DNA of 64,000 nucleotides from Trichoplax sp. H2 (GCA_003344405.1 NOWV01000017.1:310001-374000), one strand, 5' to 3'. Counted from the stretch's first letter, positions 11,027 through 63,179 are shown. Numbers and translations are program-made. The notes: generated by a model from the letters alone, not told the origin.

Positions 11027-11689
11027 TAAACTTATTGATAATGATGTCTTCAATAAATAAATGTTCTATTATCTTCTATATCAAGATGACGTTTAAATTT
11101 GGATGACTCCATGATTTTCTATCTAAAAATTTAACGTACTACTGTAATATTGAATATTGTCTTACTGCAGGATACAATACAGAACAACGTATTCTATAAC
11201 CTACTGTGTATAGGCATTTTGTAGTACGACCATACTTATTAAGGTTTAATTAAAACATATAAATAAACATTTAATTAAATTGTACTGAACAGTGTACTTG
11301 TTTTTTCTGCTACAATAATTTTATGTGGTACATACCATAGGCGTCGGTGTTCGGTGCCAAAACATCTCTCTAATCCGATACAGTTCGCATTGTACAGTAC
11401 ATGGTACATTTTAGCTAGTGCTGATAGCAATCTAGCTTGACATCTTGGTATAGTAGTTGGCACATACTTTGTAGGGCCGTTTATCATGTTCAATCTGTGC
11501 GTAGAAATGTTATAGTATACTACGCTACTATCCAAAAAGGTAAGCTACATACCACTTCGTAAAACAGCTGCAACGGCAACAATTTTCATGATCAACTGTA
11601 ACAGATAGTTGTATTGTATGGCGAATTTTGCATGATTTTTAAGTCTTGTTACGCAATAGTAGTAGTAGTAGTAGTAGATCCTAGTTATA

Positions 11690-12830: not shown

Positions 12831-13756
12831 CGATTCAATGTCACCCCCAAAATTCGCAACAACGGTATGACGAGAACGAGATTACTTGAAATCCAATAAT
12901 AAACTCGAGGTTCACATTTTCTTTCTACTTGTATGTCATAATTTGAAATTCAACGAGTGCAAACCTATGCAGTGAAGAGAAAAAAAAATACGGCCACAAG
13001 AACAACTTGACGTTCAGACAGCGCTTTGCCTTCGCGAAAAAATTGTCCGAAGAGAGTTGTTTACGCCAAGGTTTATATAGCCTTCCGGCCACAGTCCTAC
13101 TTCTTGTACTGTACACTGTAGCAGGTTTTCTTTCTTTCTTTATCCAGTACAGTACAGTACAAAATAAAAAGAATGAAACGTTATGAACGTCACTAGGCAA
13201 AAATGATACCAAAAATAGTGACCAAGTGTTACAGTGCACTGTGGAAAACAATCGTTAGTGCTAAAAATATACTGTACAGTACCCGGTACAGTACTGTACA
13301 GTCCTATGGTAATTAGTCATGACTGTTCTATATAAACTAGTAAAACTGGTATGGTACGGCGGTATCGTATCGTACCATTGTATCGAACTAAGTCTTGCGT
13401 GTCTGGCTCTACGCTGACATACATAGCGGGGTGAAGTTTCAAACGTTACGCTCTTGCTGCACGTCAGTAACTAAAATACCTTACTACGAAAACACTCATC
13501 AATAGGGTTGTAACTATAACTACTGTACTGCACCATGTAACATAATGCATCTGAGTAGCCAATCATAAACGAGCGCTAAGCTATTATTACAAAGGTTTCC
13601 CTACAACGGGTTGAGGCAATATGCTGACGTTCATAAAACGTGCTACAAATGTACACCCCAGGTGTAAGCGACGTTCGACAAACGTTTATTTCACGATTAC
13701 GTAAGTACAGTAGAATACTGTACTGTACAGTACTATACTGTACTGTACTGTACTGT

Positions 13757-14597
13757 ATGTCAGCGACGATTAGTTTTGGATTTTGCCATGGACTTCTAGA
13801 AATTAGACCAGTCAATCGGGATTGCCCGATTGAATTTTCTAGTACAGTAGTCCATAATAAAACCCCAAATTCATTGCTAGTAGTTTATGGTTTTGCGAAC
13901 TAAAGCTGATGTTATTCATACTGTATATACTGTATGTATATGTCATATATGTACAGTATACTGTACAGTATATATTATTATTAGTATACTGTACTGTTAT
14001 ACAGGATATATTATTGGCTAAGACGTGACTTCATTTACTCTTGTACAACTATATGTCTACGACTATTAGTTTTGGATTTTGCCATGGACTTCTAGAAATT
14101 AGACCAGTCAATCGGGATTGCCCGATTGAATGTTCTAGTACTGTAGTCCATGACAAAACTCCAAATTCATTGCTAGTAGTTTATGGTTTTGCAAACTAAA
14201 GCTGATGTTATTCATACTGTACTGTACTGTATATATGTACAGTATATGTCATATATGTATACTGTATAGTACAGTATATATTATTGGCTAAGACGTGACT
14301 TCATTTACTCTTGTACAACTATATGTCTACGACTATTAATTTTGGATTTTGCCATGGACTACTAGAAATTAGACCAGTCAATCGGGATTGCCTGATTGAA
14401 TGTTCTAGCACTGTAGTCCATGACAAAACTCCAAATTCATTGCTAGTAGTTTATGGTTTTGCGAACTAAAGCTGATGTTATTCATACTGTATATACTATA
14501 TGTATACAGTATGTCATATATGTATACTGTACAGTATATATTATGGGTATACTGTATATAGGATATATTATTGGCTAAGACGTGACTTCATTTGCTC
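13757..14597. repeat. Three tandem ~270-295-bp near-identical units, each with a ~95-nt imperfect inverted repeat
   Basis: TTTTGGATTTTGCCATGGACT(T/A)CTAGAAATTAGACCAGTCAATCGGGATTGCC occurs at ~13774, 14070 and 14340. The units differ mainly in the number of TACTG/TACAG units. Confidence 0.95.
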
Positions 14598-16788
14598 TTA
14601 TTTGTCCACGGGGCAAATTAGTCATACCCATTATGTAATAATAGTTTTTGATTACTACACTAAGGCAGTGTTGGCAATGACGTTATAGAGCATCTTAATT
14701 TTAACACGTTTAACGCAGTCATCGATTATTACAATCTTACGTATCCAAATTTTTTGTCTACTACAGTACTAGAAGACTAAATAGCATTCACACCAGAAAG
14801 AAAATAGAACAGGAAACTACTCATTAAAAAGACTCTAAATTGGATAAAATAGGAAAATATAGTGGCATATCGTAATTTTCCCTTGGATTTAATTGAATTG
14901 ATTGCGGCCATGACTGTACTTGTATTGTAGTAATACTGTACCGAATGTAAAGTAAAAAGTGCAAGGACGGTATAGAGCCCGGGCTCCATCATGGACTACT
15001 GTACTGTTTCTGATAACAACAATGATGTATATGACACACTGTATACACTGTACTGTATAATTATTGGATGGAGCTTTTTTATCTAATACTGCGCAAGACT
15101 ATAACATCCACCGGAAAAGAAATTAGACAGGAAACTCCTTGCTAAAAGGACTACTAAATTAATTTATTACAACCATGATGTATACTGTACATCAGCTTCA
15201 GTCATAAATAGCTATAATACATCTGGAAGACTATTGAAATGTAAAATAGCTAGGCCGGTACTGTACTGTATAGTAATATTAGTAAGCAATGACCAGGAGC
15301 AGGGACTACGGTAAAAAAGAAAAACGAAAGCAGCTAAGCGGTCGTTGACTACATTAATAATTGGGAGGCTAATTATTTTACTACTCATTTCCAGCTATAT
15401 CATATATCCGAAATGGCACACTATACTGTCCAACAATTGACATCCAAAATTAGTTGCTATACACGGGCGATTTCATTGACACCGTTTAGTAGAATGACCA
15501 GGAAAATGACCAGCCTTTCAATACAGTATTATTTTGCACTGATGGCCGTTGGCTGTCTCGTTTCTTTTCTTTACGGTAGTGCCTGCCAGAAGCAACCTTC
15601 AACAGTAATCATTTAATGATCCTGATTAGGGACTACTGTAGTACCTGTCCTGGCGCATCGCAGTCTACGGCAATATAATTATTATTTCCTCTTTATATGA
15701 TGGCCCAGCTGTACACAATAGTACTACTGTCTTAATAAACTTTCACTACCCTATGCAGTACAGTAAATAACACTATTGCAATCTATCTTCGAAGACTCAT
15801 TGGTAGTGCAAGACGAATATACATGAATCATGCTACTGTACTATTCTCAATAATACACCTGCCATACAGCTATCGTCACCATAATACACTATACTTTTAC
15901 ATCAAAATTGGTCTAATATTTTAGGTATCATAGTTTCAATTTATTTGACTGTAGTCATCTTCACAAAATTGAATTCACATGAGTATCGGTTGAGATTTCA
16001 ATAAGTTATTTAAAATATCTTAATTAAATCTAAAACAACCAATACTGACTGACATAGTTCAATATGCTCGTACAATGACTTTTTTCTTTTACCTGTACCT
16101 TGATCATTAAAGCTTGCTACGTTGTATAACAACATTGTATGAGTATCTACTATATTATTATATAATACGAATAAAAATATTCGCAAATTGCATTCATCTT
16201 AGATATTTCAAGATTGACAGTATATACCGAACAAGTTGATGTTGCGATAAATTACATAAAATAATTAATGCTGACCACCATCTCTTGTCATCAAGCAATA
16301 TTTCATTCACTTATGGTAAATGAGCCATTTTTCAATGCATATGATATCAATTTGGCCAGTTACCTGCATCTACTAAATAATGCATGTACCAATCAATCTA
16401 CACAATTCACGAATAATTAATTAAACGCTAGATGATGTCAGATTTCACTTGAACGCAGTAAGTAATACTGCAGCTTGAGATACCACGAATATCCACGGGT
16501 CTACTAAATAATGTATATCATGTAGCAGCTATCAGGGTAAGCATCCCATAGTTCAAGTCAAATATAATGTCAAATATTTTAGTTTAGCATAGCAAAGTCT
16601 TGCAATATGGAAATATTTTTGTAATATTTCTATTCGCGTATACTTTAATACGGCATTATAAGAGGTATATTTATATGTATTGTTTTAAACATTCATTAAA
16701 AGTTGTTAATTATAATTATGAAGCCTGTTTAGCCACTACTTCAACCGTTACCAATCACATCGTCTTATCAACCCAATGCCTAAGATAA

Positions 16789-21096: not shown

Positions 21097-27292
<6,196 letters not shown>

Positions 27293-33186: not shown

Positions 33187-36100
33187 TTACTGTGGGCATG
33201 TCCAATCGCCACTTAAATTACCAAATTTATACCGTTGCGTTGCGGCTTCACTGAATACGGGAATGACTTCATTTGCATTGACTGAAAATCGCTACACAAT
33301 TTTTAAAAGATTATGTTAGAATGTACGCTACCGTAGAAATCTATGAAGTATTGAAATATACGTATAAAGACTAGACTGCAGTGTCGGATATGATGAATAT
33401 AGACAGTTGATTATCTATCCGCAGTTTACTTTAAAATTAGCTTTCTTTTTTTAAGACATTAGCCAAGTAATATTCTAAAGCTTACACTAAATATTGTATT
33501 ATACTCACCTTTAAGTATATATAAGCATCCATCCCATAACCTTCTAAAGGAGATAGTTTTAAATCACCGTTTAAATACCTAGCATAAAGCCGTGATAATG
33601 GCAGTCCATAACCATAACCCGCCTTTAGATAAATAATTAATTAAAAATTATAAATTTACATCATCTTCAACGATTCCAGTCTCATTTACAAAGAATTTAC
33701 ACAATTTTTAGTTACCATAGGAGAAATAGATTCACTGCGTTCGGCATCAAACAATGATTGCTGTATTGGGCATAAATATAAATATAAATATACAATCAGT
33801 TTACCGCTATTCTAAGATTTTAATATCAACATTATAAGGTTCGACTATAACAGCTTCGAATAAAGAAAATATTCATGAACAGTTAATTACCTGTGGATCT
33901 GGAGCCGTGGAATACATATAACTAAATACAACATCTAATTTATTTAATGGAACGCCACCACCTCTGTCAACAACCTAAAAGAATGCAATTTTACAGATGA
34001 AATATGTGCATGCCAATAGCTATCATCACAAATGCAAGAATAAAAACGCTGCAAACAGTTAGTTTTCTAATTTTACTTACTCTAATCACTATATCTTCTT
34101 TTCCTGCGGTAATAATAACTTTAATCGGAGGCAATTCAGAATAACCCTCAATATGTTTTTCAACCGTTGCTCTCATCGAATTCTGCAAAGAGAAATCAAA
34201 AATAAGAATTGTTCTTCACTACGAGAATAATAAGAAAATTTTATTATCTCGTATGATATCATACCTTTAATAACTCGAAAACCATATAATGTAGTTGAGA
34301 TGGTATATAGCATATGGTTACAGGTGATAAGTTCCCAGCAGCTATTAAAAAAGCATTAACTTAATTCATTTGTACTACACTATCAGTTAAATAGTAAAGA
34401 AATAAAATACGGATATCAATACCATTATGTTCTTCAATTTCGACTTTAGGAGCAGCCATATAATATTGATCGCATAATGAGCTCGCATCTTCAGCAGCAC
34501 CTATTGAAAGTTATAACATTAATTCCTGGTCCTGACTTTAAAGTATTGGAAAGTTTAAAAATAGAATAGTCAGTCTATGGACATACTTTCAACTATTTTC
34601 ATTACACTGCAGTTGGGATTAATGCATCCAATGTGCCTTTTAAAGGGCTCTTCATCTCCGAACAGCGTTAAATGTTGCGTAATTAACAGTCTCATACTTG
34701 TACGATTAATATAGAATCGATCTGTAACATGACATTATCAGTTCAAAATTAATTGGATAGCAATTCGTTTCAGATGTTATAGCAGTGTATTTAAGCAATA
34801 CCCAAGAAATATTGTAACGACGAGTGATCCAAACTATGATTCTTTACAACTGTCTTCAATTCCATAATACCCTATACGTATAGTACAAAGTAAATCAATG
34901 TGGGTAAGCAATCATTTAAATTTATTTACTGTCAATTTTTAAATTATTTTGAATCGACGTTGATAAAAGCTGTAGGCTACTTGTACATACTTTGGCCATG
35001 GTTTCTATAACAGTACTATGGCGTTGATTGATGTTATGGATTAAATCAGTAAACTTATCTACCATACAGTCGCTGTCATTATCTGCGTTTTTCTCTCGAA
35101 ATTCAATTAGTTCCGATAAGCTTTGAGAATACCTAATTGATCACAAATTGCAGCAACTATTAATAACTTGTAACAATGGAAGACGAACATGAAATAATTT
35201 GGAAATCAAAATTGCAACGTGATTATGTGAACCAAGTGGAAAGGTCAGTTTAAATACTACTGTATATAGGTAATTTATCGGAAAGGATTAGAATTAAGCT
35301 TGTTGCAATATGTGATGTAACTGAAGTAGGAAGCTGTACTGTTATGATAATCGTTCTAAAATTGTGTGGTTTTTATAGTACAAGAGGTGCAGAAGACTAA
35401 AAGTTGTGTATAACCTTATCCTAGGCACAGTAGATAACTACAAAAAATATACTCGTATGGCAGTACTTACCAGCCGTTTAAAGTTTGAACCGAAGGCATT
35501 TCCATAAGTATATTGGGCAAGTGGTGAAGCTCCTTCATAATGTGTGCAAGCCTAATAGGCAGCTCACATCTTAAATATCGATAGGAATCCTGACTTGTGG
35601 CCGTTCGACCTTTCATCATCATAATAAATAACAAAATTAGTCCTTCTGTAAGAACAGGTTCACACGAAGTCATTCAAGTTTAGTCTACAAACTATACAAT
35701 ACGTATATATTTGATATTAATACTAATAAGTATGGTCATTGTGCGGTGACAGTAACATAGTAAAGTAAAAAAGTATAAGTACACGAAGTTTAACGAGCGA
35801 GGGATGGACTATTTTTTGCGATCGATGAGAAAGAATATATTTATCGTTCAATTATACTCATATGTGCCATTAGTGTTATGCAAACGACGATATTGTAGTA
35901 TGGACAGTAATAAAGGTGGGTAATTGCGTATTTTACAGTTTCCTGTATAGCAAAATAAAAATCTTGCGACCAGCTAGTTTACCTTACTACAGTATTATAG
36001 CTATACAGTATTGTAAGTTGTACGCAACGTTGCATTCATCTTTCAAATTTTGAAATAATAACTCAGTGTGTTTCTAAGGGATAAAATAACTTTTCAGCGA

Positions 36101-37510
36101 ATGGAAAAAATGATGTTAATCTCAAGACACGTTGTTTGACGTCGATGTGTTTAATAAATTAGCGATACGAGGGTGATTAATTGATGATAAGGGCGATACG
36201 CTACGCGTATAGCGACCGATAGTTTTTTATGGGCATTTTGATCGAAAAATAGCCTTTAAACTATTCAAGATGCAGTACACGTATAGTATCCATAGTGGTG
36301 AGTTAAAATAGGCAATGCATTAACGTGTCGATCTTCAACCGAATTGTGCGTAGAGCCTTTTCGATATTTGCCTTTGCACTGTACTGTACAGTATTACACG
36401 GTAACAAATTTATTTATTTATCTATTTTTATGTAAACTTCTTCTCGTACGCTAAATTCACCTCTATCGTATCTATTGGATGACTAATTTCAAATATTTAA
36501 TCAAAGTATAGGAAAAAAAAAATTCTTTTACTTATACCGTTCTAGATTTTAAGTAAAGGGCAACCATCGGCTGATATAATTGAGCCAACCTAATTAACAT
36601 AACGACTGTGGTGATTTAACGTATTACGATCCAAAATAAAGCAAAGGAATAAAAATATTTTACAGGTAATTTTGAAGTTATTGGGTGAGAACGCTAGTGG
36701 CCAAACCTACCGTACGTTACGCTATACGAATACTTTAATACTGGATATTTTACTACCGTAAATGCTATTGGGCTGACCGTTTGAAATCATTTCATCGATC
36801 GGTTGGAAATTCTATCCGCTAATTTAATATACTGTAGATGTAAAAACGACAGGCATAACCACCTGATAATAGGCGTTGTGCAGGAGTCTAACTACTTGTA
36901 GGCGGATTTGAGTAAAATTCTTTCCTCAACTCACTGTCCACTTTTGTAAAACAATTGCAAAATAAGCAATCTTTTTCGATCTTACAGAATAACTTTTTAT
37001 TGATTGGCAAGAATATTGATGTAAAGTATTTTGACATTGGAGAAGTAACTACTATTTATTGGCAATAATTAATAATGTAACGTACAGTACTGTAGTTTAA
37101 GTGACGGATGCCGATCTGTAAGATGATATGTATCGAGCAAGACGTTCCTAAGCTAAAATCGTTGCTATTGATGTTGCTAGCAGGCTGAACGGGTATACTT
37201 GGTGTGGATAAGTAACTCTATTTGTAGTGTACAGAAGGATGCCTAGTGAAATAACTGGCTGACTACGAATTACGACTTGCAAAGCATGACTACATGTATC
37301 GCTGTAGCATGTTTAGTCAAGACTGAAGATGAGATCTCTGCATAGTATAGAGCTGAAGTTATTTCAAATTGAATCATGCTAGACGAAGATATTGAACTTA
37401 CCGAAATCCATCAATTGGCGAATGGATAAAGGCGAAGGTGAATATTTCCAGTAGCGATTAATATAGGTAGTAACTTCTTGAGAAGCCACTTTGAACGCTT
37501 GTTGAGCCAT
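33187..37510 (-). CDS. PDK: Pyruvate dehydrogenase kinase, mitochondrial, paralogue 1, multi-exon
   Basis: Starts [37 protein letters not shown], with an in-frame stop upstream of the ATG. Motifs: [46 protein letters not shown]. Ends with the C-terminal DW motif (SGDWTCPQ*). Confidence 0.95.
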
Positions 37511-38454
37511 GGTAGGTGTACTGGTGGGTGTTGTACTAATGAATAATTAGTACGGTAAAAGATTGGAGCAATTTCCTATCCAATTTCAACTATCTGAAGT
37601 CACTACTCGTCACGGATTAGCAATGGTAAGCTTGAATGAAGGCTTGAAAGTACCAGTAGTCGATTGGAGTGGATGTTTTGGGGCAAATTTGCTGATGATT
37701 GATTTGCAATTACTATTTCCAGCTTATCCTTGAATGATAAACTTACGTCAGTATGTCTGTAATATTGCACTACTTGAGCCTTGAGGTGGTTGATTGCGGG
37801 TGTTTTCCTATTCGTGTATTCAGTATAGACTTGCTTTGACGATGGATCTACTTCACATGCGCGATGGCAATAAAGAATGAATTGTACAGCGCCCACACCA
37901 ATATTTATAAAGTTGGTGGCCATCACGTGGTCTAGAAACTTCTGGTCCATTTGGAACTGAACTTGCGTAGTGTAGTGCACTTGCGCAATGTCAACCATGG
38001 TTATTGTTTGCAAAGATAAAAGAAAAGAACCTTTTATCTCTCCAGTGACCCTTCCATGTACGTCACAAAAACGAGGGTGAGACCAGGGTGGTGTGTTGGA
38101 GGTTTGCCCATCAATGATAAGCCGGCCAGAAAGGCGATTGGCAGACATTCAATTGACGTTCAATACCGCAGTACAATCAGAGTCCAGTCCAGTCCAATCA
38201 TGACGCAATACGTACAATACAATGATTTGGACTACTGGACTAGAAATTACCAGTAGCGTTGACGTCCAACGTGAGCACGTACATCTGAACGATTTTCGTC
38301 GTAGCCATGATCTATATTTAGTGCAATCAAGGTGTGCAGGTGTACTCGTTTTCTGGTTATTCTACTTTGTATAGCACGAAAAGTGCACAGTATAAAACCA
38401 ATCAATCAAGGGAGCAGCTATTGAGTAACTTGTAAGGAGAGACGAAACCTTTTA

Positions 38455-38705
38455 GTACTGTCTAAAAACTATAACTATACTGTACTGTACAGTACAGTAC
38501 AGTATACTGTACTGTAGTTATAGTTTGTACATGTACAGTACAGTACTGTACTGTAGACCTACAGTACTGTACTGTACATTGTACAGTAGAGGTCAATTTA
38601 TCTTAGTACTGTACTGTACTGTACAGACTGTACAAATAAGGAGATTACTGTACTGTATACTGTCCAGTGTCCAGCACAGTACAGACGTACAGTACAGTAG
38701 AACAT
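38455..38705. repeat. Dense tract of mixed CAGTA/CTGTA pentamers (putative stacked Tc1/mariner excision footprints)
   Basis: Example: TA CTGTA CTGTA CAGTA CAGTA CAGTA TA CTGTA CTGTA at 38478-38516. Similar tracts occur at ~13270, 13705-13757, 48140-49290 and 62310-62370. Confidence 0.85.
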
Positions 38706-39521
38706 TGTGAACTCCTAAAACTTTCGCACTTGTACAGTAGATCCCTTTATCAAAAGAATTTCACCATCTTTAAAATTAAAAATTATTGTCTGCAATCATC
38801 TCATCTACATTTTTATCAAGCTTCACTTCAACATCTTGAGGAAAACTATCTTTTATCTGACAATGTCTGCAAATGGCCAAGGACTTGTACAGTACAACTG
38901 CAGATCACTGTGGATTGTACAGTATTGTAGGATACGGTAGCGCCACACCTAAAACCAGCATCGAGTTTTGACCTTTTGTGGGTGACCTTACCAGACGGAC
39001 AGATTTCGGAATTCTACTTCCATGACGGGGTTTAGTCATTCAGAACGACTAACGACTAGGACAGAGCACGTTCGAGTATGCAGCACTATAGAACCAAACC
39101 TTCGACAGGTGTAAGTATAGTGAGTAGTGTCTAGGCTTGCGCTATTGCCTTGCCTACTGTCATCGTTCTCCTCTCTTGTTCTTCCTTCTTGCCCCCGATG
39201 TGTAAGGTAGTGGGAAAGAAGCTTTTACGTACAAGTAGGTTGCGATTGCGGTATTGATTATTCCGCGCATCGTCGATGATTCGACAATCCCTGGCATAAC
39301 CTTGTTAACTCTTTCGTGCAAACTTGAATTCGACTCTACTACAGTGATGTATGTGTCAGCAGTAGTCAAGCTTGAATGTTGTTGTTGTAGACGTGAAAAC
39401 AAAATTGTTACTAATTGCATCATCATTTTCCACACTGACAGCTCCAGTTGAATCCATTTCAAGTGGAACTGCATCGGCTTCCAATTCCAATTCATTGATA
39501 GGACGCTCAATTTATACATTG

Positions 39522-42500
39522 ATGGCTGCTCAAATTCGTCAACGAAGCGCTGATGTCATTAAATACATCAATCGCTACAGTCAGTATACACCGTTGTCGC
39601 TTTCCATTAAACAACTGATGGATTTTGGTAAGTTGATAGCAATCTATTTGAAATACTGTCATGATGATGGACTTGATCCTCATTGCATGCGTATACTAGT
39701 AATAGAGCATTGACAAAGCATCTACACTACTGGAAGATGATATTAGCATCACAACCCAAACAATATTTTACAGCCTAGGTCAATACAGGTAGTCCATCAT
39801 ACTGGATACTACGACAGTCACATATTTATTTATTCTACAATAGGCTTAGCGTTGCCTTATTATTTCTCCCAAATTATCACTACAGGATTAAATATATATC
39901 CTCACTGAGTCAAAGAATCAAATCGAATAAAAATGAAATGAATAAGATTGATTGGCATTGAGTAAAAAGTCAATAATCTGATAATGCACTGTTGAATAGC
40001 GACAGTACTCTACCATATACATTGTGCAGTATACATGCCGGGAAAGGCCAACAATATTGCCACCAATTACATTGACTGATGACTAGTAAATCCGTAACAT
40101 CACCTATATCGATTAGGTAATTAATTCATCAATCAGAATCAACTATCAACAGACAGGCTCAAGCTTGCTAGGCATAAGCACGAACGATAGTCTTTCCAAC
40201 CGTTGCACAGATTTGATTCCACACTACTCTGCAATTTTTAGCAATAGATATAGTGCAATTATCAATAAAGTCTAATAATCAATATATCATTCCTGTTTGA
40301 CTACAACTATGGTCCATGGGCGTCGTTGATTCATTTGGTTTGTCATATCGCATTGTAGTATTGGAAATCAATGGCGATGTCAATTCTTTTGCAACCATAG
40401 TACAGTATATTGTATTGTGGAGCAGCACACCGTATTGTCAACTTGTAGTAATTTTTGCACCTATTCTCGCCATGTTATTGTCGGATTCTATAGTATCTTA
40501 ACGCTAAATTTCAACCCATAAAATCAATATCCATCGATTCATCATTATTAAATGAAATAATCACTAAAAATATTGGTAACAGGTTGACGTGATGAATAGG
40601 ATGTCCTAAAACTTTCATTTTTTTTAATTTACGATAATTATCTTATCCTTGATGACGTAAAAGCACGCCTCATCAATTGAAAAATTGTTTTTGTATATGG
40701 CACCCGAGAGTAGGTTTTATTTAGAATCACTACCATTGGTAAATTGCTGTAGATGTATAGCATTATCCCTTACAATTCATGACTGACATCCACTTAGAAT
40801 AACTGTAATTATAACCATAAATTAGTGAATACTACTTTGTTGTCTAACGACGATATTTGTTATTTAATTATTGACCGTTGATTAAATGGTTCTATCAAAA
40901 ATAGTTTTGCCCAATGTAAACAAATAATTCTATCAGTACATCGGTAGATCGCAGATACAACTATCCTTATTTTCAAACACTATATTATTGAATTCAATGG
41001 ATTTGTTATTTACTAGATCCACAATATCGCTAATTGAAGATGTCATAAATTTAACCTCCAAGTAATCAATTGATATTTTCCAAATGGAGAGAAAATTCAA
41101 TTTTCGATAGCACTCTTAACTTAATCATAGTCTTTACTTTGATCGCGAGAGTAATCTAAATGAATAATTTTAGCATGCATACAAGAATCATAATTCAGCC
41201 TATAGGGGTTACAGCAAGTGCTGAAAATGATTTCCTACTTGACTGTACAGTTAATTTTTCTCAACAACCGCAGCTTCCGTTTTACTTTCCTTTATTTATT
41301 TCTATTTCATTGATAAATTTACTTTATTTTGTTACATGCGGTTACAAGCTATGAATACAGTCGAGAATTATAGTTACTGTATAATCACATCGATGAATTA
41401 CTCTATGATAGCGTTGTATTTGATCAGACACCATAGTCGCTTCTCATGTTGTAGTCGCATTTGTATACCGTATTGTATGTACACATTAGTGTACTGTATA
41501 TTCACGCATGACATGGAATATCCTCAGCCATATCAAATTATTCAATCCAAATACGCTAAAATGGGATTTAAAAGTAATTGAGGAGACGAAAAAGGATTAA
41601 TCAAATCACTGCACACGATAGCTGTCACAATTTAAGTATTGGTTTGTCATTGGAGTATGTAAAATAGCTTGCAGGCCATTTTTACTAACTGTAAATAAAA
41701 ATAAAACAATATTGAATGAAGATGAAAAGGATTAGACTCATTTCTGTATAAGATAGTTAATTCACATTTTCGAATAGCTATAGTCAGCATAAGTTGAATG
41801 TTGACTTGCCATTACGCAAAATAGGTTGTCAGTCACTTTTTCCGATAATTATAATCATTTAGTAACAATATCGCTAGCCAAAAGAGATCACTATCCCTTT
41901 CATTACAGTAAAAATAGGTTCTAATGCAATTGGAACGGTAACTTGGCATCATCCATGTATGAAAACTTATTTGCTAAAAACGTCCTTGCGTTGTAGTGTA
42001 TTTATTTTAACATTTCAATTTGAAGCCTGTGTAATATTTGGATCGTAACACTTTCATCCTACGGCTTTAATGGAATGGAATTATTCATCAAGTAATTAAA
42101 TTTACTACTTTTATATTTTATATTAATCAAATTTAAATATAACATAAACGAATTAGGTCGTCATGGCTCAATCCTTAATTCATATAAGTTCTTGAGTTCC
42201 GAACTCCCTATAAGGTTGGCGCATATTATGAAGGAATTGCGTTATTTGCCTGTTGGATTATTAGATATGCCGTCGGTGCAAAGAGTTGATAATTGGTAAT
42301 TAAATAAAAAAAGTTTCAATCATTGCTTCACGTGATTTAGAATTGTTGAGGTTTTACTTGTTAAGCAACTTAATCAACTTAACTATAGCTACAGTAGGGT
42401 TCAATATGATACCTACTCGTACAGAATTAGCTGATATGCAGAATGTAATCCTTGTGTGTGATATCAATGACGAGTACATGTTATTTTTTATAGGTACGCA

Positions 42501-44525
42501 ACTAGTTTAATCGAGTTAATCGATTTTAGAGACCAGCACAAAGGTAAATCCTGTGAAGTGACTGCTAAGAATTTTACGAATTTGGTAGCAAACATCAGAC
42601 AGCGCCATAATAGCGTAGTAGAAACAATGGCGCAGGTAAATATATCTACGTATACTGTAAACATATATCTAATTTTTTTCTTAATTGATTTTTACTATGA
42701 CGGTTACAGTTTACTGCATTAAGGAAATGTATAACAATCATTTACTTTAGGGCATTATAGAATTGAAGCTTGCTAAGAAAGACTATAATTTAGATCAACA
42801 TCGTTTACAATATTTTTTAGGTAAGTTTATTATACTCTGATCATTTTTTTGTATTGTTTTGTCGTCTCCTTGTACTTACGAGCTTTAATAGTAAATTTCT
42901 ATAATATCCTTATGTTGTAGACCGCTTTTATACCAACAGAATGAGTATTAGATTATTAATTACGCAACACAACATGCTATTCGGTGAAGAGAATGCAGAA
43001 AAAAAGCATATTGGCTGCATTGATCCGTCTTGTAATTTATCAGAAATTGTTGCAAGTAATATTTTGTTACAAATTATCCAATCAGACTATTTTAATAATT
43101 GAACGTATAGCTCGTTTATAAATCTAATAAGTATTGACTATTTGATTATTTTAAAATTGCAGGTGCAGTTAATAATGCTAGCGAATTATGCGATCAATAT
43201 TATATGGTTGTTCCACCAGTTGATATTAACGAAGCTAACGGTAATTAATTATAAATTATTGGCTAGTATTTTTTAAAGTGCATCATGCAGATTTCCATAA
43301 GTACGGATCACCAGCTCTATCGGTATCATTAACGCGCATAACCATACTATGAAAATCAAATATTTTCTTACTCTGTATATAGCCGTAGAACCTGGTAGTG
43401 GTGTTGATATATGTTACATTCCATCTCATTTGCATTACATGGTGTTTGAACTATTAAAGGTTTGAAATATATTAACGATTTTTTTACGTCTACTCTCACG
43501 TGTAAAAGTATGAGCGAATTCTAAAGGCTGCACTATCTTATATATTTGCGTAGAATTCTATGAGAGCAGTAGTTGAAAATCATCAAAATAATCTCAACTT
43601 ACCTCCAATTCAAGTTACTATCACCAAAGGCGAAGAAGACATTCTTATTAGGGTACTGTAGTGCTTAAAATTGAGTAATTAAGTTTGTAATTGTTTGATA
43701 TGCCAATACTCTATTAACTATAGTACTACCGGGATGGGATATGCGGACTTTATTTATGCTAAAAATTCAAATTTTTTCTTTAGATCTGTGATAGAGGAGG
43801 GGGTATCCCAATCTCAAAATTAGAAGACATTTACAGTTACATGTACTCAACCGCACCTCAAGTAAGACTTGAATAGTTCAGTAGTCTGATAATTAATTAT
43901 ACTGTATAATCAAAATAAATACTCAAATACTGCTGCATTAATCTTAAATTAGCCGCCATCACTGGATTTGGTTGCAAGGTCAGAAACAGTAACGCCGCTT
44001 GTAAGTTTGTTAATAACATGAACCACAATTAGATAATAAAATTGATGCTCTTCTGCAATCCCTAACCAATTTAATTTGCTAAGTATTCAAATAATAAACT
44101 ATCGTTTGTTTACTTATGGTATGTCCTTTAACTCGCTTAATTTAGGCTGGCTTTGGTGTTGGCCTGCCATTATCTCGCTTGTATGCTAGGTATTTAAACG
44201 GAGATTTAAAGCTTTCCCCCTTGGAAGGTTATGGTATGGATGCATATATTTATCTAAAGGTACTAATTATTTCTCTAACAAATGATTGTCAATCTACTGT
44301 AAAATCTAATCGGTATAGAATCTACGCATGTAGGACATTTCAGATAATATTCAGAAATTGATGATATCATATTTATAAAGTCAATTTAATTTGCAGCGAT
44401 TTTCTGTGAAAGCCAATGAAGTTCTACCGGTATTTGGCGAAGCAGCATCTCAGCAATATCGTGTTAGAGGATTGAGTGGAGATTGGACCGCATCAGCGAG
44501 TAATCGCAAAGACAAAAGTGGATAA
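39522..44525 (+). CDS. PDK: Pyruvate dehydrogenase kinase, mitochondrial, paralogue 2, multi-exon
   Basis: Starts [36 protein letters not shown]. Motifs: [50 protein letters not shown]. Ends [19 protein letters not shown] at 44523-44525. Intron positions match paralogue 1. Confidence 0.95.
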
Positions 44526-45053
44526 TCTTGAGAATCGTTAACTGCGTATAATCATCATCAATTTGGATGGTATAGTTAATATCATATGCAATTATTGTTC
44601 ATGCTGATAGCACACATTTTTGGGACTCGAAGGCTAATATTTTGATACACAGATTGAAAAAATGGCGCATATATAATAATTACGTAATAAATCTGCCATA
44701 TTTGATATATCAAACAAGGAAATGATTACATAATCTGATCACAGAAGCAGTAATTAATTAATTAATCATCGCATATACTTGATATTTAATTTATAATTTA
44801 AAACAATTTTCAAAAATGACACATTATCAATCGGCAGACTTGTATTTAAATTTTTATGTTATTAGCTGCTATAAATATCTGACTATTTTGTCATATTAAA
44901 TTCCTGATGAGTTCGCTAACATTGATTATTGCAATCTCTAGAGAATAGAGCGAAGGTGTATCTTTTAAAGGAGGTTATAAATTTGATATTTTTGAATTTT
45001 ATTTATATTACAATACTTTGAAATGCGGTGTTAAATAAGCTTCCTATGACTTT

Positions 45054-47779
45054 TTACGGCCTCGTTAAAATTTCGACGCCTTGTGAAGTGATAAGAACCG
45101 TATGTTCGCATTGTGCACTTCTGAAATAAAAATGTAATCGATCAGAGGAAAAATTTCGGACTTGTGACTTGTATATTACATCTAATTCAAGATTTCTTTT
45201 CAGCGCGTAGTAATACTGTATAAATCCTTATGAATGCAAGATTAATGAAATGCGAACATGTACATAAATCATCCTTTTAGCGGAAGTCGTTTAAAATCAA
45301 CAATACCTTTTATTGTCTGTTGATATTGCAGTCCATCCGTCTTCAAGAATTTCTGCGTCAGGTGTTCCTTCACAAATGACCGGCTCTAGTATGACCATCA
45401 ACGCAACTTGTTAAATAGCACATAAATACATTGATGGTATCAAATGTAAAGAGTAGTCTACTATTTTTTGGAAACCTATTGTAAAGGTCATTCCAGGTCG
45501 CATATGTCCTATTTGCCAATTACCTACGAACAAAGTGAATGGAAAAATAGTAATTTAAGTAAAAAGTTAGATTGATCATAGTAACTGCTAATTACGTTAG
45601 ATTTAATTACAAATTAGTAAAACGTACGATAATGATAGATATGAGGGGGTCCATGAAAATATGATCCAATTCCATGGCCAAGAAACATTTTATTCACAGT
45701 AAAGCCGGCCGCACGCGCCAAGTTGCTGATAAAAGTTTTACCGTAAAAACAACATTTATATATTTATAGAACGGACATTAATAACATGCAATCTGACCTA
45801 ATCGTTTTGCCAATATTGCGGAACGGTACATTCGGCCCACAAATATCAATTGCTTGTTGAAGGCAAAGTTTGGCAGTTTCAACGAGTTGTTGGCCTGTTT
45901 CATCTACGTTGCCTAATAAAAATGTATCAGAGGTATCGCCGTGATAACCATTATAATAGACCTATGTGATTAAAAGGAACAATAAAAGTTATTCAACTAT
46001 TAGAATTTATTAATACTAGAGTAAGTTGCTTTTGTAAAAATTTGATATTATACTACTAGCAGAAAGCAGTCAGGAGTTATAGAAATTGATGTTATGATCG
46101 TGACTTACAGAAATATCAACGTTGATGATGTCTCCATCTTCCAGTGGACGGCTAAATGAGCGAAAAGAGGATTACATACAATGAATAAGCAATATTGAAA
46201 TGGATATAGTTTTATAGATGTAATTTTATAATTTTTCTTATCTATAAACGTATCGTATGTACGAAGGATATTTTATGAGGCTACACTGTCTACCGTTAGT
46301 AACTTTTATAGATATTTGAATAGTTGGTAGAGTTTAACAGCAATACAATATCAAATGTTTGATCGAATATGATCATCTGTATTAACCTAACCTATCGGGA
46401 ATTCCATGACAAGCAACGTTGTTGACTGAAGTGCATACTGATTTTGGGTAACCATTGTAGTTGAGAGGTGATGGATAAGCACCATGTTGGATTATGTTAT
46501 CGTGAACGAACTGATCAATATCTTCGGTTGTCATCCCAACCTAAAATTGTAGTGTAAAGATCGAAATCAGGCAATATTTATTGTTTACGTTTTTGTACAT
46601 AGTACAGTATACTCGTTGTTGTATAGAGTATTTATCGCATCATCAATTAATAAACAGAATTAATGGCAAGGTGGATAACGTTGTATTATACTTTACATCT
46701 CAATTAGCGTCGGACTTAATGCATATGCGTACGAATGTTTTATTTTGATAATTTACGTTTCTTAGGTAGATATTCAAATCGCAGTGAAGTTGGTGTTGGC
46801 AATAATTAATCATTGTAATGCCATATTTACAGTCTATGTCGATATACAGTAAACGTGAATATTCATTATATGCGCGTACATGGATTATCAAGGGCTGAAA
46901 TTTTCTATGAGCTAATATTGATGCTCTAAACTAAAATTATATTGCCATGTCGTTTTTCAGTGTACCTTAATGTAGTTTTTAACAGAATCTAATATTCGGT
47001 ATGCCAATTGACAAGATCTCTTCATGGCGTCAATCTGGTCTTCATTTTTAATTTCAATAGTGATAGGTGACGGAGGGACTACGCCTGTTAAAGCGTATGG
47101 AGGCAACGGTATACCTTGTGGGACAGGCTGAGCTGGAGATACTTGTTTAGGTTGTACCAAACTAAATGAAGACCAAGATCTATACGAATACAAGGAATAG
47201 ACGTGGTTGTATTTTGTCACTAATTATAATTATAATTATAATTGAATGGTTACATAGCAGTGCTTTAAGTTAAGAGCTAGTTGTACCTAAAAATCTGCCT
47301 ATATCGGCTGGAGAATAGCATAGATGGCGAATAGTAATTGCCTATTCGTAGCTTTCCTAATAAAATCAATAGTTTCAATTGCATTTCTTGAACTGTTTGC
47401 ATACGTACGTATCTCTGTCTAGCTCTGGACAACTGGCTGCGTTGTACAGTCGATAGCGTATTCTGCATCATTCAATTCAATTAATGATACTTGATAATAC
47501 GAATAATCTGCACTTATACCTATGCTAGTTTAGTTATGTGCATAGTATTATGGTTAATTATTGGTTATGGTTGTGTTTTACAGGTCAGAAATCTGATCCA
47601 CTAGATTGCATCAGATTGCATTTATCCTTTTATTGACAGTCGTTATTACGCGTATGGGCATATCGGTTATTTGCACGAGTAATGATCAACTGCTGTTGCA
47701 TTGATCTGCTCTGTCTCTAACCTGCTATTTTAAGCATACGGCAACAAGTTGTCAGCCTATTGATTCCTTGTAAAACCAT
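45054..47779 (-). CDS. METAP1D: Methionine aminopeptidase 1D, mitochondrial, multi-exon
   Basis: Phase-compatible 5' exons give a presequence-like [45 protein letters not shown]. Catalytic motifs follow: [65 protein letters not shown] and SAQCEHT. TAA at 45056-45054. Confidence 0.92.
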
Positions 47780-48136
47780 TCTACCGCATCCAAATTTACG
47801 ACAGTATCTAGCATGTGTCAATAGGGTAGTCGATGTAGATCAAATAGCTGGCGAAATTGGATGCTGACATTAAATTGCAAGTTGAAACGATCAGGATGAG
47901 TTGCAACGAGCTGCAAGAGGTCCAGCTAACGACACTTTGAGCTAGCGTCAGTCAGCAAGTGTCGCAGGTCAAAATGAGAAGGCTGACTTTTCTTTTGCTA
48001 TTTTGTTGGGTTATTTGACTGTCTCGGAAGACTGGAACCGTACACCGTACTATGATCAACTTCGATACCGATGTACAGAAGTACAGACTAGGGAAATGGT
48101 CAGCCTACAGTACATATTTTCGACGAGGGTTACAGT

Positions 48137-48905
48137 ATACAGTACAGTATAAGGGTTCATTGACTATCCCTAGCACCTACAGTACAGTACCGTGTACAAT
48201 ACTGTACTGTACTGTAGTTATTACGGCAAGATTTTTGGTACAGTGTACAGTTTACAGTACAGCGATGTGCATCGAATTACAGTACTGTAGATCTCTTCCA
48301 TTTTCTCTACAGTACTGTACTGTACAGTATAGTTCAAGCTGTTCAAAAGGAAATTTCTTATATACAGTACAATACTGTGGAGAAAATTGAAGGGATCTAA
48401 TTCAATGCACACCACTGTACAGTACTGTACTTCAGATTTTTTTAGTAATTAGCACCGTAGCCTCACAACGATGAAGATTAGCTTACATATATTATTAATA
48501 TTTTATTTAAATCTTTACAGTTTTACACATTGTAAATTTATTTTAATTCAATGTCATCTTAGAACTCCTCAAATTGAAATTTAGAAGATGTTGCCATTAC
48601 TCAAGAAGAAAATACATAAATGATAATTATCGTGATTTAATGTTGTAGTTTTGTACTGTACAGTACAGTACAGTATAAGGGTTCATTGAATATCCCTAGC
48701 ACCTACAGTACCGTGTACAATATTGTACTGTAGTTATTACGGCAAGATTTTTGGTACAGTGTACAGTTTACAGTACAGTGATGTGCATTGAATTAGATCC
48801 CTTCCATTTTCTCTATAGTTCAAGCTGTTCAAAAGGAAACTTCTTATATGCAGTACTGTTGAGAAAATTGAAGGGACCTAATTCAATGCACACCACTGTA
48901 CTGTA
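48137..48905. repeat. Direct duplication of a ~250-290-bp block (copies ~48137-48420 and ~48660-48905)
   Basis: TATAAGGGTTCATTGA.TATCCCTAGCACCTACAGTA..GTTATTACGGCAAGATTTTTGGTACAGTG.. is present twice, about 525 bp apart. Confidence 0.93.
48776..48898. mobile_element. Tc1/mariner-type MITE (123 bp) flanked by TA; a second, footprint-interrupted copy lies at 48260-48417
   Basis: TA|CAGTGATGTGCATTGAATTAGATCCCTTCCATTTTCTC ... GAGAAAATTGAAGGGACCTAATTCAATGCACACCACTG|TA: 38-bp terminal inverted repeats with 3 mismatches, CAGTG termini and TA on both sides. Confidence 0.8.
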
Positions 48906-49752
48906 CAGTACTGTACACTAAAAAAATCTGAAGTACTGTACAGTACTGTACTTCGGATTTTTATTTTACTGTCCTTCAGATAAGATTTAAGATTGAGAAG
49001 TCCCTGAAGTACAGTACAGTACTGTACAGTACTGTACATTGTACAATACTTGATGGTCTAGTACAGACGTCAGGACCACTGGACCGGACCGATTCAGTAC
49101 TGTAGCGTCCTTTACGTACAGTTTCGTAGATGATAGACAGACAGACTCTCTCATTGTACATTATAGGGTACACACCAGTACTAGAAAAAGAAGAGGGACA
49201 GCAGCAAGACGGACATGGTGATGGCTCCGGCTGTACAGTGTACAGTGTACAGTACCGTCGTGGACAGTACAGTGGACAGTACTGTACAAGTCACGGGTTG
49301 CTGGTAGAGTTCCTCGAAAGCTTGTTGTGATCGTCACATGATGTTTGCGTCATTTTAACATCACATGCTGCGCCTGTTGAAGTGTTGATGAACGTCATCA
49401 TGTCCAACCTGGTCTATAGTAACAGTATGGGCGACACCAGAGTCGGTGTTGTTCATCAGCCAAGTTCATCAGTGAATTTAATGAAGCCGTCATGGCCACT
49501 CCATTGTACTGTACAGTACTATCGACTGAACCGTACCGTACCGTACCGGTCTAATGTACAGTACAAGACAGCAATAAATTATTATTCTGTTACTTCACTC
49601 AGACCATCCAGATATTTTTTTAATTTTCACTGGCGGTGCACCAAGCTTTTGCATTGCCTCTTAGCACAAATTAACCAGTTTTTCCTCATATTGGAGGTTA
49701 TTCTTTTGATGACATACCCATTACTTTAAGGGAAAGACTTGGATTCATCAAG

Positions 49753-52700
49753 ATGGTTTCGTTATTTCGTTCGGAAGAGATGACGCTCGCTCAGCTCTTT
49801 TTACAGTCCGATTCTGCTTATGCTTGTGTTCGAGAATTGGGAGAATTGGTAAGAATTTTTTTGTTGGCCACTGCTGTTCAAAAGACAATCTAGTCGTCTC
49901 ATAGTTGAGAGAGATATTCTACAATGTTGTAATGACCATCAGTTTGCCTACTTTCCAATCCATATTTCAACATGGATTCCTATTGCTGCTATCCGATATG
50001 TCAGAGTAGAGAGTACAATTGGGTCGTACAATACAGGACAGCGGCAAAAGTGCACATCCACTTCCAAACAAATTTCTCATTGAAAACTTGACTTTACTCG
50101 TATATATACAGTAGACACCACTCATGTCAATCCTACCGCTTTCTTGATTTTCCCTTTTTAGTCTTAATTTCTTTTTTTTCGCTTGCAATACTTTCAGTTC
50201 TATTGAAAATGATCGATAGTAATAGTCAGTCATGGCGGTTGGACTGCTAACTATCTTGTCGATAATTAATAATATACAGTACTGTATATATATATATATA
50301 TATACTATACAATGTACATGGGATCGCCATTTCCATAACAACTTATGCAAAGGGTGAAGTCATGGTGCAAGTTCTGTAGACTCTACTTCTCGCGACAAGT
50401 ACTGTATACTTAAAGGTTAATAAAGTAAATCAATCAGTAGTATGACAATGTCTTAACGAGTAGTAACTTGACTTGCTGGAGAACAACTCCGAAACGAACA
50501 GGCCAAAAAATCATGTACTTTTACAGAATACAATATCGGATGGCGACAACATCGCTAATCCTGCACAAGTAGTTTTTTACTCTCATCAACAGTAAAATGT
50601 ATCGGCCTTGGGCGCAAAAATAGATTCATAACTACACTACAAAGTGGCTAATCTATCATACCTTGTAGCGAGGCTATACTAAAGTATCGACATTTCTGTC
50701 TTTAAACAACCAAAGATTACTGTAAATTGTTAACTAATTTTGACCAGCTTTATTAATCAAGTGCTACTAATTAGCATACTAATAATGGGCTTTTTCTTAA
50801 CCATTCTTTTAGGGCAAGGTGCTATTTCGTGATGTAAGTTGATTAACTAGCGTTAATTATTATTCTTAAATACTCAGCAGATGAACTGTGTTCATTGAAA
50901 CGTCAATTTATAAAAAATATGTTTTTACAACTGGATTTAATAATCCAAAGTGAAATAAATTATCTCATACGATGATAACATTGTGCTTTTTTTGATCTTA
51001 TACAGCTGAATCCTGATGTTAATGCTTTTCAAAGAAAATTTGTCTCGGAAGTAAGACGATGTGATGAGCTAGAACGAAAACTTCGTAAGTAGCGCTTATG
51101 TTACATCGTCATAGTTTAGAAGAAACAGTGTCTAGTTTCACTGTACAGTATTGTTTAAAATGCATACACTACGCTCTGTACCTGTTGTACTAATAGAATC
51201 CTGTAGAAGAAGCAAGTACTTGAAGAGAAATTTCCCATTTGTTATTACCTAGAACTATGTATGCCCTTGATTATTATTTTAATTTCATGTCCAACAATTA
51301 CGATTGTCAAAGGTTTTCTTAAAGCTGAAATGGAAAAGGAATCCATTCCCATTAAAATGGTGGAGACTGACTACACTGCTCCATTGCCAAGAGAAATGAT
51401 CGATTTAGAGGTCAACAAATGCTCTTTTAGTAACCGACAAAAATTTATGCAACAAATACTTTGATCGATATGATAGATAGTATTAACCGATAGATTATAA
51501 TTATAAGTACTGTACAGTACATTGTAATCCTGTACAACCTTAGAATCGTGATAAAAATACAGTACTATAATTTAACGAATACACGTTATCGCTGTACATT
51601 GTGTACAATAGATATGTTATCCAAATTCTTAAAGCTTTAAAGATGATAATATTGATTATTACATAAATATGTATAAACATTTTAGGCTAGATTGGATCAT
51701 TTTGAGACTGATATTAGGGAAATCAATAAGCATCAGATGGCTTTGAAAAAAAATCTACTTGATTTGATCGAGTTTAGAGCTATTTTGTCAAAAGCAAGCC
51801 ATTTCTTCATCGAGGTAAATTAACGCAAGACTTTATTTTTACAAATTTTTAGTTTATGGTAGATTTTTAACAATACAATAAGATCAGTTTCGACCAATGG
51901 AATTGCTCCTATAAAAAAAGTTGTCGCTTTTATCTGAAAGCAATCATGAATTATTGATGGATATCATCCATTATTTGATAATATTTTTCTGTACCATAGG
52001 CAGAAGATGCTGTATTTCATCAAGCACAAGAAGTAGTACCTGATGAAGGAAGCAAATCTCTTTTAATTGAAGATGGAATGCCAGAAAAATCGATTCAGTC
52101 ATCACGACCAATGAGGTTAGAAATCGCATTATAGCGATTCATTCTGTAGAATTTTCTATCGTCCAATACTAATTATACAATTGTTGTTCTTCAACAAATT
52201 TCATAGCTTCTTATCTGGTGTAATTAACCGAGATCATCTCGCCGCGTTTGAACGAGTTATTTGGCGGACTTCTCGTGGTAACGCTTTCTTTCGCCATGTA
52301 GAAATCGAGACACCGTTAGAAGATCCCAAAACGGTTATTATAATTATTGCATATACAGTATTGAAAAAGTATTGAAGTAATTAAAGTACTTAGCTAGTAA
52401 TGGTATACTGTACAGTACGTACGAGTATAAATATATATATATATATATATACAGTATATTGACATATATATATATACTTCAAGTCATGAGATATTCTTAT
52501 AACCTCTAAACAATAAAATTCAGGGTGATATGATTAGCAAGTGTGCTTTCATGATATTTCTACAAGGCAATCACTTAAGATCACGTATGATGAAAATCTG
52601 TGAAGGGTATGTACCATTTTGTTTGGTTCATTTTAGTCCCTACGTCACTTGTGGTACTAATAAAAGTAACTTGTATTAAGATACAGAGCTAGCGATACAT

Positions 52701-62500: not shown

Positions 62501-62569
62501 TGAGCAATAATTGAAAATAATAATCGTGGTAATCGATCCACTTGCACTCTCTTGAATAGTAAAAAAGAA

Positions 62570-63179
62570 ATGGCTGCTGCTAATTTATTAGCTACACTGA
62601 CTGCTCCGTCGGAGATCAACAGTCTAAGTTTCTCACCTGTACGTAACTTATTAGCTATTGCTTATGGGAATAAAACAGTTGGCATTTACGATGTCAATGG
62701 CAAGGAGATCGGAGAAAATCCCATCTCTCCCTTAATTGGCCATACTTATGCGGTCAATACATGTTGTTTTTCATCCTTTGGTACCATGTTAGCGTCGGGC
62801 GCTACAGATTATGCCGTCTGTTTATGGGATATTAAATCGGGTGGTAATATCGCTTCATTTGAAAATCATACCAATGCCATACGTAAAGTGGTCTTTTCAC
62901 CCAATTCCTCCTTGTTAGCATCAGCATCAGGCGATCAAACCATCAAAGTTTGGGAAATGTCACGAAGAAAATTACTACGATCATTACAAGGCCATGATAC
63001 AACCGTTAATACGTGTTGCTTTACACCGGATAGTAATTATATTGTATCAGGTGCATTTGATGGCCATATTAAATTATGGCAAGCCTCCTCTGGCCGTTGT
63101 TTACAGACTGAGTTTGATTGCCACGATTTAGGCGTTAATGATTGCCAGTTCTCTCCTACTTTTGGATCAGCATCTGAAG
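62570..63179 (+). CDS. WDSUB1: WD repeat, SAM and U-box domain protein 1, first coding exon; the gene continues beyond this exon, probably past the window end
   Basis: WD40 repeats carrying the WDSUB1-like strings SPLIGHTYAVNTCCFS and HDLGVNDCQFS. Donor GAAG|GTAAC at 63179/63180. The SAM and U-box domains are not visible in the window. Confidence 0.8.

Follow-up and report, generated by a model that had tools for sequence, protein, structure and literature searches.

The pentanucleotide repeats of the placozoan Trichoplax adhaerens are dominated by a single unit, ACAGT, which makes up 78% of them according to the available portion of the paper that described it, where it is proposed to be a transcription-factor site (Wang 2010, PMC2871265); the words "footprint", "excision" and "slippage" are absent from the text of that paper. 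The same portion reports no active transposon in this species and one family, of ~20 copies, of MITEs (miniature inverted-repeat transposable elements). In the accessible part of a study of Sleeping Beauty, the sequences TACAGTA and TACTGTA are given as the canonical footprints left by this transposon (bioRxiv 10.1101/659086), while a motif at placozoan promoter-loop anchors is described, in the sections available of a more recent report, as resembling Mutator terminal inverted repeats (TIRs) annotated with EDTA, with targeted integration offered as one explanation (Kim 2025, PMC12221973). Here we analyse a stretch of 64,000 nucleotides from Trichoplax sp. H2 (GCA_003344405.1, NOWV01000017.1:310001-374000; hereafter the window), which has a G+C content of 34% and short introns and belongs to an animal genome of 94.9 Mb. 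In this DNA the heptamers TACAGTA and TACTGTA, i.e., units C[A/T]GTA following a TA, recur singly and in tracts of mixed orientation, which the initial annotation of positions 38455 to 49560 interpreted as stacked excision scars of Tc1/mariner elements. The observation is real and the units are probably footprints, with the agent unproven.

Abundance, placement and orientation of the unit

The heptamer TAC[A/T]GTA occurs 203 times in the window, where first-, second- and third-order Markov models predict 15.7, 31.5 and 58.4 occurrences, respectively, and its rank among heptamers of every kind is first or second, in agreement with the claim that the tracts are pervasive. A ~10-fold excess over the composition models is likewise found (1495 copies against 154 expected) in a 664-kb sample consisting of the window and six 100-kb blocks, five of them from contigs known to carry the CAGTG-ended element described below and the sixth adjoining the window. 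Single-mismatch neighbours of the heptamer are enriched at most 3.8-fold in this sample, and ACAGT is the top-enriched word in both datasets. If the sample is extrapolated to the genome, the excess amounts to ~2x10^5 units. A second pair of words, TACAGTGTA/TACACTGTA, is present 109 times against 9 expected in the 664 kb, with half of the occurrences adjoining a unit; such words might arise when the same ends are repaired, less often, with an overlap of one base, or might represent five bases from the CAGTG terminus.

The units are strongly clustered, 5% of the 500-nt bins containing 45% of them, and 985 of the 1186 tracts in the 664 kb (83%) consist of a single unit. Along the window, the density reaches 12.7 and 17.0 heptamers per kb in two intergenic regions, compared to 1.8 and 1.4 in the two genes between them, and the interval 37550-39520 contains 25. 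Both dense fields are intergenic DNA, each between divergent gene starts, and a concentration of ACAGT upstream of genes is present in the window data. The proposed pile-up between genes holds for these two fields. Ordinary gene body makes up most of 38455-49560, and the tract reported at 62.3 kb is weak, with only 4 exact heptamers in 62001-63000. Variants of the pentamer such as CAGTC, GGACT and GGACAG are mixed among the standard units at 38180-38250, 38660-38690 and 49260-49290.

Adjacent units in the window are evenly divided between same (27) and opposite (27) orientation. The two-unit tracts of the 664-kb sample show a similar balance (71 same, 61 opposite, p=0.43), while all adjacent pairs taken together lean towards the same orientation (179 versus 130, p=0.006), with a mild excess in the longer tracts. 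Genome-wide, the triplets comprise 4438 pure and 2122 alternating cases (2.1:1), and 249 in which the middle unit has a C or G at its centre. Such an excess of T at the triplet centre cannot be produced by point mutations in a repeat grown by slippage, and the contention that mixed orientation is poorly explained by simple slippage is borne out. There remains a modest bias (~0.59) towards the same orientation, which we read as superimposed slippage. Both orientations arise independently of their neighbours, as seen in the 71:61 division of two-unit tracts and in the additions beside an existing unit described below.

Gains of exact pentamers at TA dinucleotides

To obtain an indel spectrum between duplicated copies, 799 kb of sequence (the 664 kb plus 44 loci, many of which were obtained via the CAGTG-ended element and are hence tract-rich) were aligned to themselves; 507 of the 1015 alignments had enough non-repeat identity to be kept, and gaps with clean 12-base flanks were merged into 158 clusters. 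The initial annotation had predicted gains of five bases, or multiples of five, at TA, and a spike at this length is indeed what the copies display: 43 of the 158 clusters measure 5 nt, compared to 42 of 1 nt, 19 of 2 nt, 8 of 3 nt, 5 of 4 nt, 4 of 6 nt and 8 of 10 nt (a looser first pass gave the same spike, 42/173). Thirty of the 43 five-base clusters are an exact C[A/T]GTA after a TA, whereas 3.2% of 5-nt windows drawn at random from this DNA would qualify, a contrast whose significance is overstated because the indel events are not fully independent; several of the remaining 13 are near-units. Counting multiples, unit indels make up 38 of the 97 indels of at least 3 nt. TA[C]TA or TA[CA]TA indels were absent from the scored clusters, and 4 of the 19 two-base indels are duplications of TA.

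Close inspection of these events reveals that 17 took place at a naive TA, that is, one with no adjacent unit, and are not duplications of a neighbour: 14 are single units, two double and one quadruple. By majority among the copies, five of the 17 are insertions, one is a deletion and 11 are unpolarised; three of the latter lie inside arms of the MITE-like element, where comparison with the rest of the family makes them insertions. When a single unit was added beside an existing one, it duplicated that unit in eight cases and did not in six. Overall, duplications of the adjacent unit, the signature expected of slippage, account for only 10 of the 30 single-unit indels, the other 20 being of a different kind.

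The clearest comparison is provided by a local duplication at 48 kb (Table 1), the two copies of which differ by 11 substitutions over 249 aligned bases and by five gaps, with the extra bases all in copy 1. In the alignment, these form five blocks located after a TA, of 5, 5, 10 and 20 bases plus one CAATA variant. The two indels highlighted in the initial annotation, GAATTA[CAGTACTGTA]GATC at 48278-48289 and TTCTCTA[CAGTACTGTACTGTACAGTA]TAGTTC at 48308-48329, are exact with respect to the 48.8-kb copy, and comparison with the MITE-like family polarises both as insertions: the first block is absent from the opposite arm of the element as well as from copy 2, and the second from the other family members. 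Within 1.5 kb, the 22-mer at 48308 is unique. At two further loci (position 1553 of L011, G000:C204, and position 1490 of L025, G000:C161), independent short insertions occupy the same arm position as that at 48280; they lack a perfect TA on both sides and possibly reflect a hotspot followed by later mutation.

Similar indels had been noted in a triplicated unit at 14 kb, and we find single CAGTA units gained or lost there at TAs near 13951 and 14505. Each unit of this triplicate (13770-13870 and two repeats extending to 14440) contains an imperfect hairpin of ~100 nt, the right arm of which carries a 5-nt unit that is absent from the left arm and reads CAG in one copy and CTG in two; the 799 kb hold no further copy of the hairpin.

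The sequence context of the units is also biased. Isolated units (n=739) are preceded by G (position -1) at a frequency of 0.27 versus 0.17 and followed by C (position +1) at 0.24 versus 0.16, while T at -1 and A at +1 are disfavoured, a preference that decayed units could inflate. Strand symmetry of the bias holds at +/-1 (difference p=0.27) and is weaker at some positions farther out, and the same two disfavoured bases are rare at the 17 naive indel sites (2/34). Since each unit leaves one TA after a G and one before a C, the self-reinforcing growth of scar arrays suggested in the initial annotation fits these preferences, and the stacking step itself is partly shown.

A CAGTG-ended element, transposase genes and the setting of the tracts

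CAGTG is a typical end of Tc1 and Tc3 elements, and also of Tc7. Consistent with the notion that a CAG-terminal element should exist, the tract at 48 kb houses two copies of a short, non-coding, TA-flanked element with terminal inverted repeats of the CAGTGGTGTG type, which we refer to as MITE-like; the arms of copy 2 are ~90% complementary over ~45 nt. Relatives of ~120-310 nt were located at 19 places in the genome. In the best-kept arms the boundary of homology coincides with CAGTG, while many other arms are truncated or damaged: TA-CAGTG is kept at four independent loci (one of them without an adjoining tract), CAGTGG without the TA is found at two more, and, among the arms examined, only the two copies in the window have TA-CAG at both ends. 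The loci are rich in tracts, with a median of 14 units per 1.2 kb (17 loci) compared to 1 in 551 background bins. Two of the 19 places are tandem arrays of one arm (850-1570 of L012, G000:C552, and 1700-2600 of L009, G000:C475), amplified as units of ~65-70 nt that then gained ACAGT units singly.

Further members were sought in several ways. A search for TIR pairs of the form TA-CAG...CTG-TA in the 664 kb plus 16 loci returned 28 pairs; apart from those on the element in the window, which looked real, all were rejected as elements, being built of tracts. The terminus pattern gave 52 matches (4 in the control), and reading seven new ones by eye yielded no additional family member. A search with the internal sequence of the element recovered short relatives only.

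We then turned to transposase genes. The genome contains 2 matches to PF13358, 4 to PF01498 and 3 to PF03184, and two protein queries gave 4 and 11, all of which are lower bounds. A DD34E Tc1 gene has one in-frame stop, and the DD43D copies are broken by frameshift or stops, indicating that the superfamily was once present; one DD43D copy is shifted in H2 where its T. adhaerens counterpart is in frame (over its first 400 letters), so some of these genes broke recently. Remnants with only the DNA-binding part are also present, and two intact Tc1-like open reading frames (ORFs; L030 and L032) apparently lack the first catalytic aspartate, as judged by eye. Three single-copy, TIR-less pogo/CENP-B-like ORFs (Table 1) are likely domesticated transposases. 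When the TIR and internal sequence of the MITE-like element were compared with 12 transposase loci, as well as with 56 kb of more distant flanking DNA, no significant match was obtained, and a weak search of a protein collection found no full-length relatives of the Tc1 N-terminal half at E<=1e-20. An autonomous CAG-terminal Tc1/mariner element inside the tracts, as anticipated in the initial annotation, was not found among the transposase loci read. At 5570-6500 of L172 (G000:C1), an intact ORF encoding the DNA-binding half of a Tc1 transposase alone adjoins a ~300-nt inverted-repeat element with an internal ACAGT tract, inside a larger inverted duplication.

The 38.5-kb tract field lies between two pyruvate-dehydrogenase-kinase-like paralogues in head-to-head arrangement, which have similar first exons, and the second field leads to the putative first exon of a V-ATPase a-subunit-like gene. 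Inverted homology between 27183-27296 and 49749-49862, and between 25237-25327 and 52522-52612, points to another V-ATPase a-subunit-like gene, located on the minus strand near 25-27 kb, and the whole of 25-53 kb may represent an ancient inverted duplication. Elsewhere in the window, 11667-12831 comprises some five 211-nt units in tandem that are free of ACAGT.

Table 1. Positions of the features discussed, in window coordinates except for the last row
Feature	Position	Strand	Remarks
MITE-like inverted-repeat element, copy 1	48260..48417	.	158 nt; TA on both sides; 35 extra bases of units inside
MITE-like inverted-repeat element, copy 2	48776..48898	.	123 nt; CAGTG...CACTG; TA at 48774-48775 and 48899-48900
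Local duplication, copy 1	48138..48431	+	45 extra bases relative to copy 2
Local duplication, copy 2	48664..48912	+	Shorter, ancestral-like state
CAGTA CTGTA insertion	48280..48289	+	At a TA without neighbouring unit, in the left arm of the MITE-like element
CAGTA CTGTA CTGTA CAGTA insertion	48310..48329	+	At a TA without neighbouring unit; block absent from family members
Triplicated unit of 270-296 nt	13704..14600	.	Internal hairpin; unit indels
Tract field of TA(C[A/T]GTA)n	38478..38740	.	Mixed orientation; between divergent pyruvate-dehydrogenase-kinase-like genes
Second tract field	48899..49560	.	Reaches the start of the V-ATPase a-subunit-like gene
Pyruvate/branched-chain dehydrogenase kinase-like gene	39522..44520	+	PF10436 on two exons; ends approximate, from ORFs; few units
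Inverted kinase-like paralogue	33500-37550	-	Inverted exon homology, 33.5-34.5 kb versus 43.2-44.3 kb
Methionine-aminopeptidase-like (M24) gene	45054..47223	-	PF00557 on two exons; extent approximate, from ORFs; few units
V-ATPase a-subunit-like gene	Start near 49760		PF01496 match weak (below the curated cut-off), falling on a later exon
Pogo/CENP-B-like ORFs	L124 1042-2688, L125, L126	- (L124)	Open frames of 549, 419 and 426 aa; single-copy; TIR-less

Origin of the units and comparison with known systems

With five-base insertions, mixed orientation and a compatible element all observed, we favour the view, at a probability of roughly 0.6, that the units are excision footprints of a Tc1/mariner-type transposon, later lengthened by slippage. 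The chemistry of the opening step is established for Sleeping Beauty: insertion would duplicate the TA, and excision with 3-nt overhangs would be repaired to TA-CAG-TA or TA-CTG-TA. Gains of exact C[A/T]GTA blocks at TAs, in either orientation and also without an adjacent unit, are what the copies display, and to our knowledge no process other than the insertion-excision cycle places an invariant CAG or CTG at arbitrary TAs while duplicating the TA; that excision was the writer here is our inference. Each unit would in turn create two TAs with favoured flanks (G before, C after), so that hits stack, and once two or more units are adjacent, slippage would lengthen same-orientation runs, both of which the data show in part. 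Finally, insertions would prefer promoter DNA, and the elements would be lost or selected against while their 5-nt scars remain. The CAGTG-ended MITE would be left over from this traffic and a candidate for its substrate, and the transposase that moved it may be dead, lost, unassembled or unrecognised in the genome. Two other kinds of scar were considered and set aside: the full fill-in footprint TACAGCTGTA is not enriched (1 site in 664 kb), and hairpin-type (hAT/RAG) footprints would, by reasoning, copy the flank, whereas here CAG or CTG is added regardless of it.

The initial interpretation is partly supported: the unit indels at naive TAs, the minority of adjacent duplications among single-unit indels and the CAG-ended family run counter to all three outcomes that it named as refuting it, while the autonomous element and a trio of filled, empty and footprint alleles did not come to light. 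Several observations weigh against excision footprints. Among the transposase loci read (PF01359 not being searched, and the matches of one query being read at three places), no intact transposase lies between TIRs, and none of these loci has TIRs or matches the MITE ends. Four public DNA runs compared with 33600-53500 gave ~1300-5000 contigs per run, largely on repeats and ~11-20 on the MITE; their indel table contained tract noise only, and no trio was seen in a comparison swamped by repeat matches, which did confirm that the repeat is abundant throughout the genome. A unit next to a MITE arm can imitate its TA-CAG end, and a family of 19 places stands against ~2x10^5 extrapolated excess units. 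The local rate is very high (nine units versus 11 substitutions in the 249 bases, all in one copy). More than half of the Sleeping Beauty footprints in human cells are non-canonical, according to the part of the source available (bioRxiv 10.1101/659086), whereas in the 664 kb TACATA is depleted (806 versus 976 expected), TATATA falls below expectation and TACTA and TACGTA reach 1.2x and 1.4x, respectively; the spectrum of footprints may differ by host and element. Lastly, three of the 17 naive events involve more than one unit, and those of 10 nt have exact templates nearby.

This last point is central to the main rival, which we regard as unlikely: a templated insertion without any transposase, in which a TA-ended nascent or broken strand would copy a nearby tract up to the next TA and return, by template switching or polymerase-theta-type repair, adding in-register 5n blocks in either orientation and allowing arrays to self-propagate from an old seed. 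It would account for the multi-unit gains at naive sites, including both 10-nt insertions, whose exact copies lie 30-150 nt away, and would not require the missing enzyme, and most scored events are in tract-rich DNA, partly because the loci were obtained via the MITE. It is at odds, however, with the 22-mer at 48308, which has no second copy within 1.5 kb, and with the predominance of single units among the naive events (14/17); a two-base microhomology is little to work with, the seed is left unexplained, and gains of other common TA-bounded words do not reach a similar rate. Slippage of an (ACAGT)n microsatellite, with flips by point mutation or by strand-switch correction of the quasi-palindrome TAC-W-GTA, draws on the surplus of pure over alternating triplets, the same-orientation excess among adjacent pairs and the 10 adjacent duplications, but flips to T outnumber changes to C or G ~17-fold per base, two thirds of the single-unit indels (20/30) are not duplications, 14 of them having no adjacent unit, and 83% of tracts are single units. 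As the sole cause it is largely refuted by the naive-site insertions and very improbable, and it remains a contributor.

A domesticated, TIR-less host transposase could instead move short CAG-ended elements, or cut at TA and leave the same scar. The long intact DDE_1 ORFs without TIRs (549, 419 and 426 aa), which have T. adhaerens counterparts, lend themselves to such a role, and this origin would reconcile a high recent rate with the lack of an autonomous element. The link between pogo-like proteins and the MITE ends is nonetheless putative, L030 and L032 seem, by eye, to be without the first catalytic aspartate, and CENP-B-like genes are usually catalytically inactive; we consider this scenario quite improbable. 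Equally hard to credit as the origin is selection of the heptamer as a protein-binding site for a promoter or loop-anchor factor, which could also follow a footprint origin as co-option. In its favour, the accessible text of the T. adhaerens survey places 54% of ACAGT repeats within 1 kb upstream of genes, with translation and kinase genes enriched (Wang 2010, PMC2871265), and a conserved motif is described at placozoan promoter-loop anchors in the available part of the later work (Kim 2025, PMC12221973). Selection, however, makes no spike of 5-nt insertions, and the units also occur inside MITE arms and tandem repeats and vary freely between young duplicates.

The ACAGT repeat and its promoter bias, published in 2010, are already known, as is the chemistry of footprints; the CAG-ended candidate element inside a tract, the genome-wide orientation controls and the indel set are new. 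In the literature covered, to which most subscription papers are external, no paper was found that proposes a footprint origin for the ACAGT repeat. Such an origin is testable and would address an unexplained oddity, the earliest reported instance in which the dominant microsatellite is a pentamer. If it is true, a genome called nearly transposon-free preserves a dense fossil record of past cut-and-paste activity, and excision scars can contribute substantially to promoter DNA and to the birth of microsatellites. The interpretation of the transposon-linked motif at placozoan chromatin-loop anchors is affected as well. That motif is transposon-linked and concentrated at active placozoan promoters, and is ascribed to Mutator TIRs in the portion of the report available (Kim 2025, PMC12221973). 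Since mixed-orientation tracts readily form false TIR pairs, it may correspond to ACAGT arrays, which we put forward as a lead only; that placozoan promoters are paved with ~10^5 Tc1/mariner scars that are themselves the loop-anchor motif, the footprints rather than transposon bodies having been co-opted for an architectural protein, is a speculative extension that we hold to be doubtful.

Among known systems, Sleeping Beauty (Tc1, DD34E) yields identical products, TACAGTA and TACTGTA, as +5 nt at TA in both orientations, as far as the accessible part of the source goes (10.1101/659086). It differs in leaving many shorter footprints, forms that are not enriched here, and in producing single events with a known transposase, whereas the units of Trichoplax, still without an identified enzyme, are stacked and genome-wide. 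Tc1/mariner MITEs share with the CAGTG-ended family a short length, the lack of an ORF, TIRs of ~45-70 nt, CAGTG ends, TA flanks and dispersal among unrelated flanks; the present family is distinguished by its low copy number, mostly damaged ends and two one-arm tandem arrays, with no autonomous partner found, and it is possibly, though not necessarily, identical to the ~20-copy MITE family of Wang 2010 or to one among the five Repbase elements that paper cites. The (ACAGT)n repeat of T. adhaerens has the same pentamer, genome-wide abundance and upstream-of-gene bias in the same genus (PMC2871265); perfect repeats were counted in that work, while the units described here are mostly single and TA-bounded, of mixed orientation, and arise at TA.

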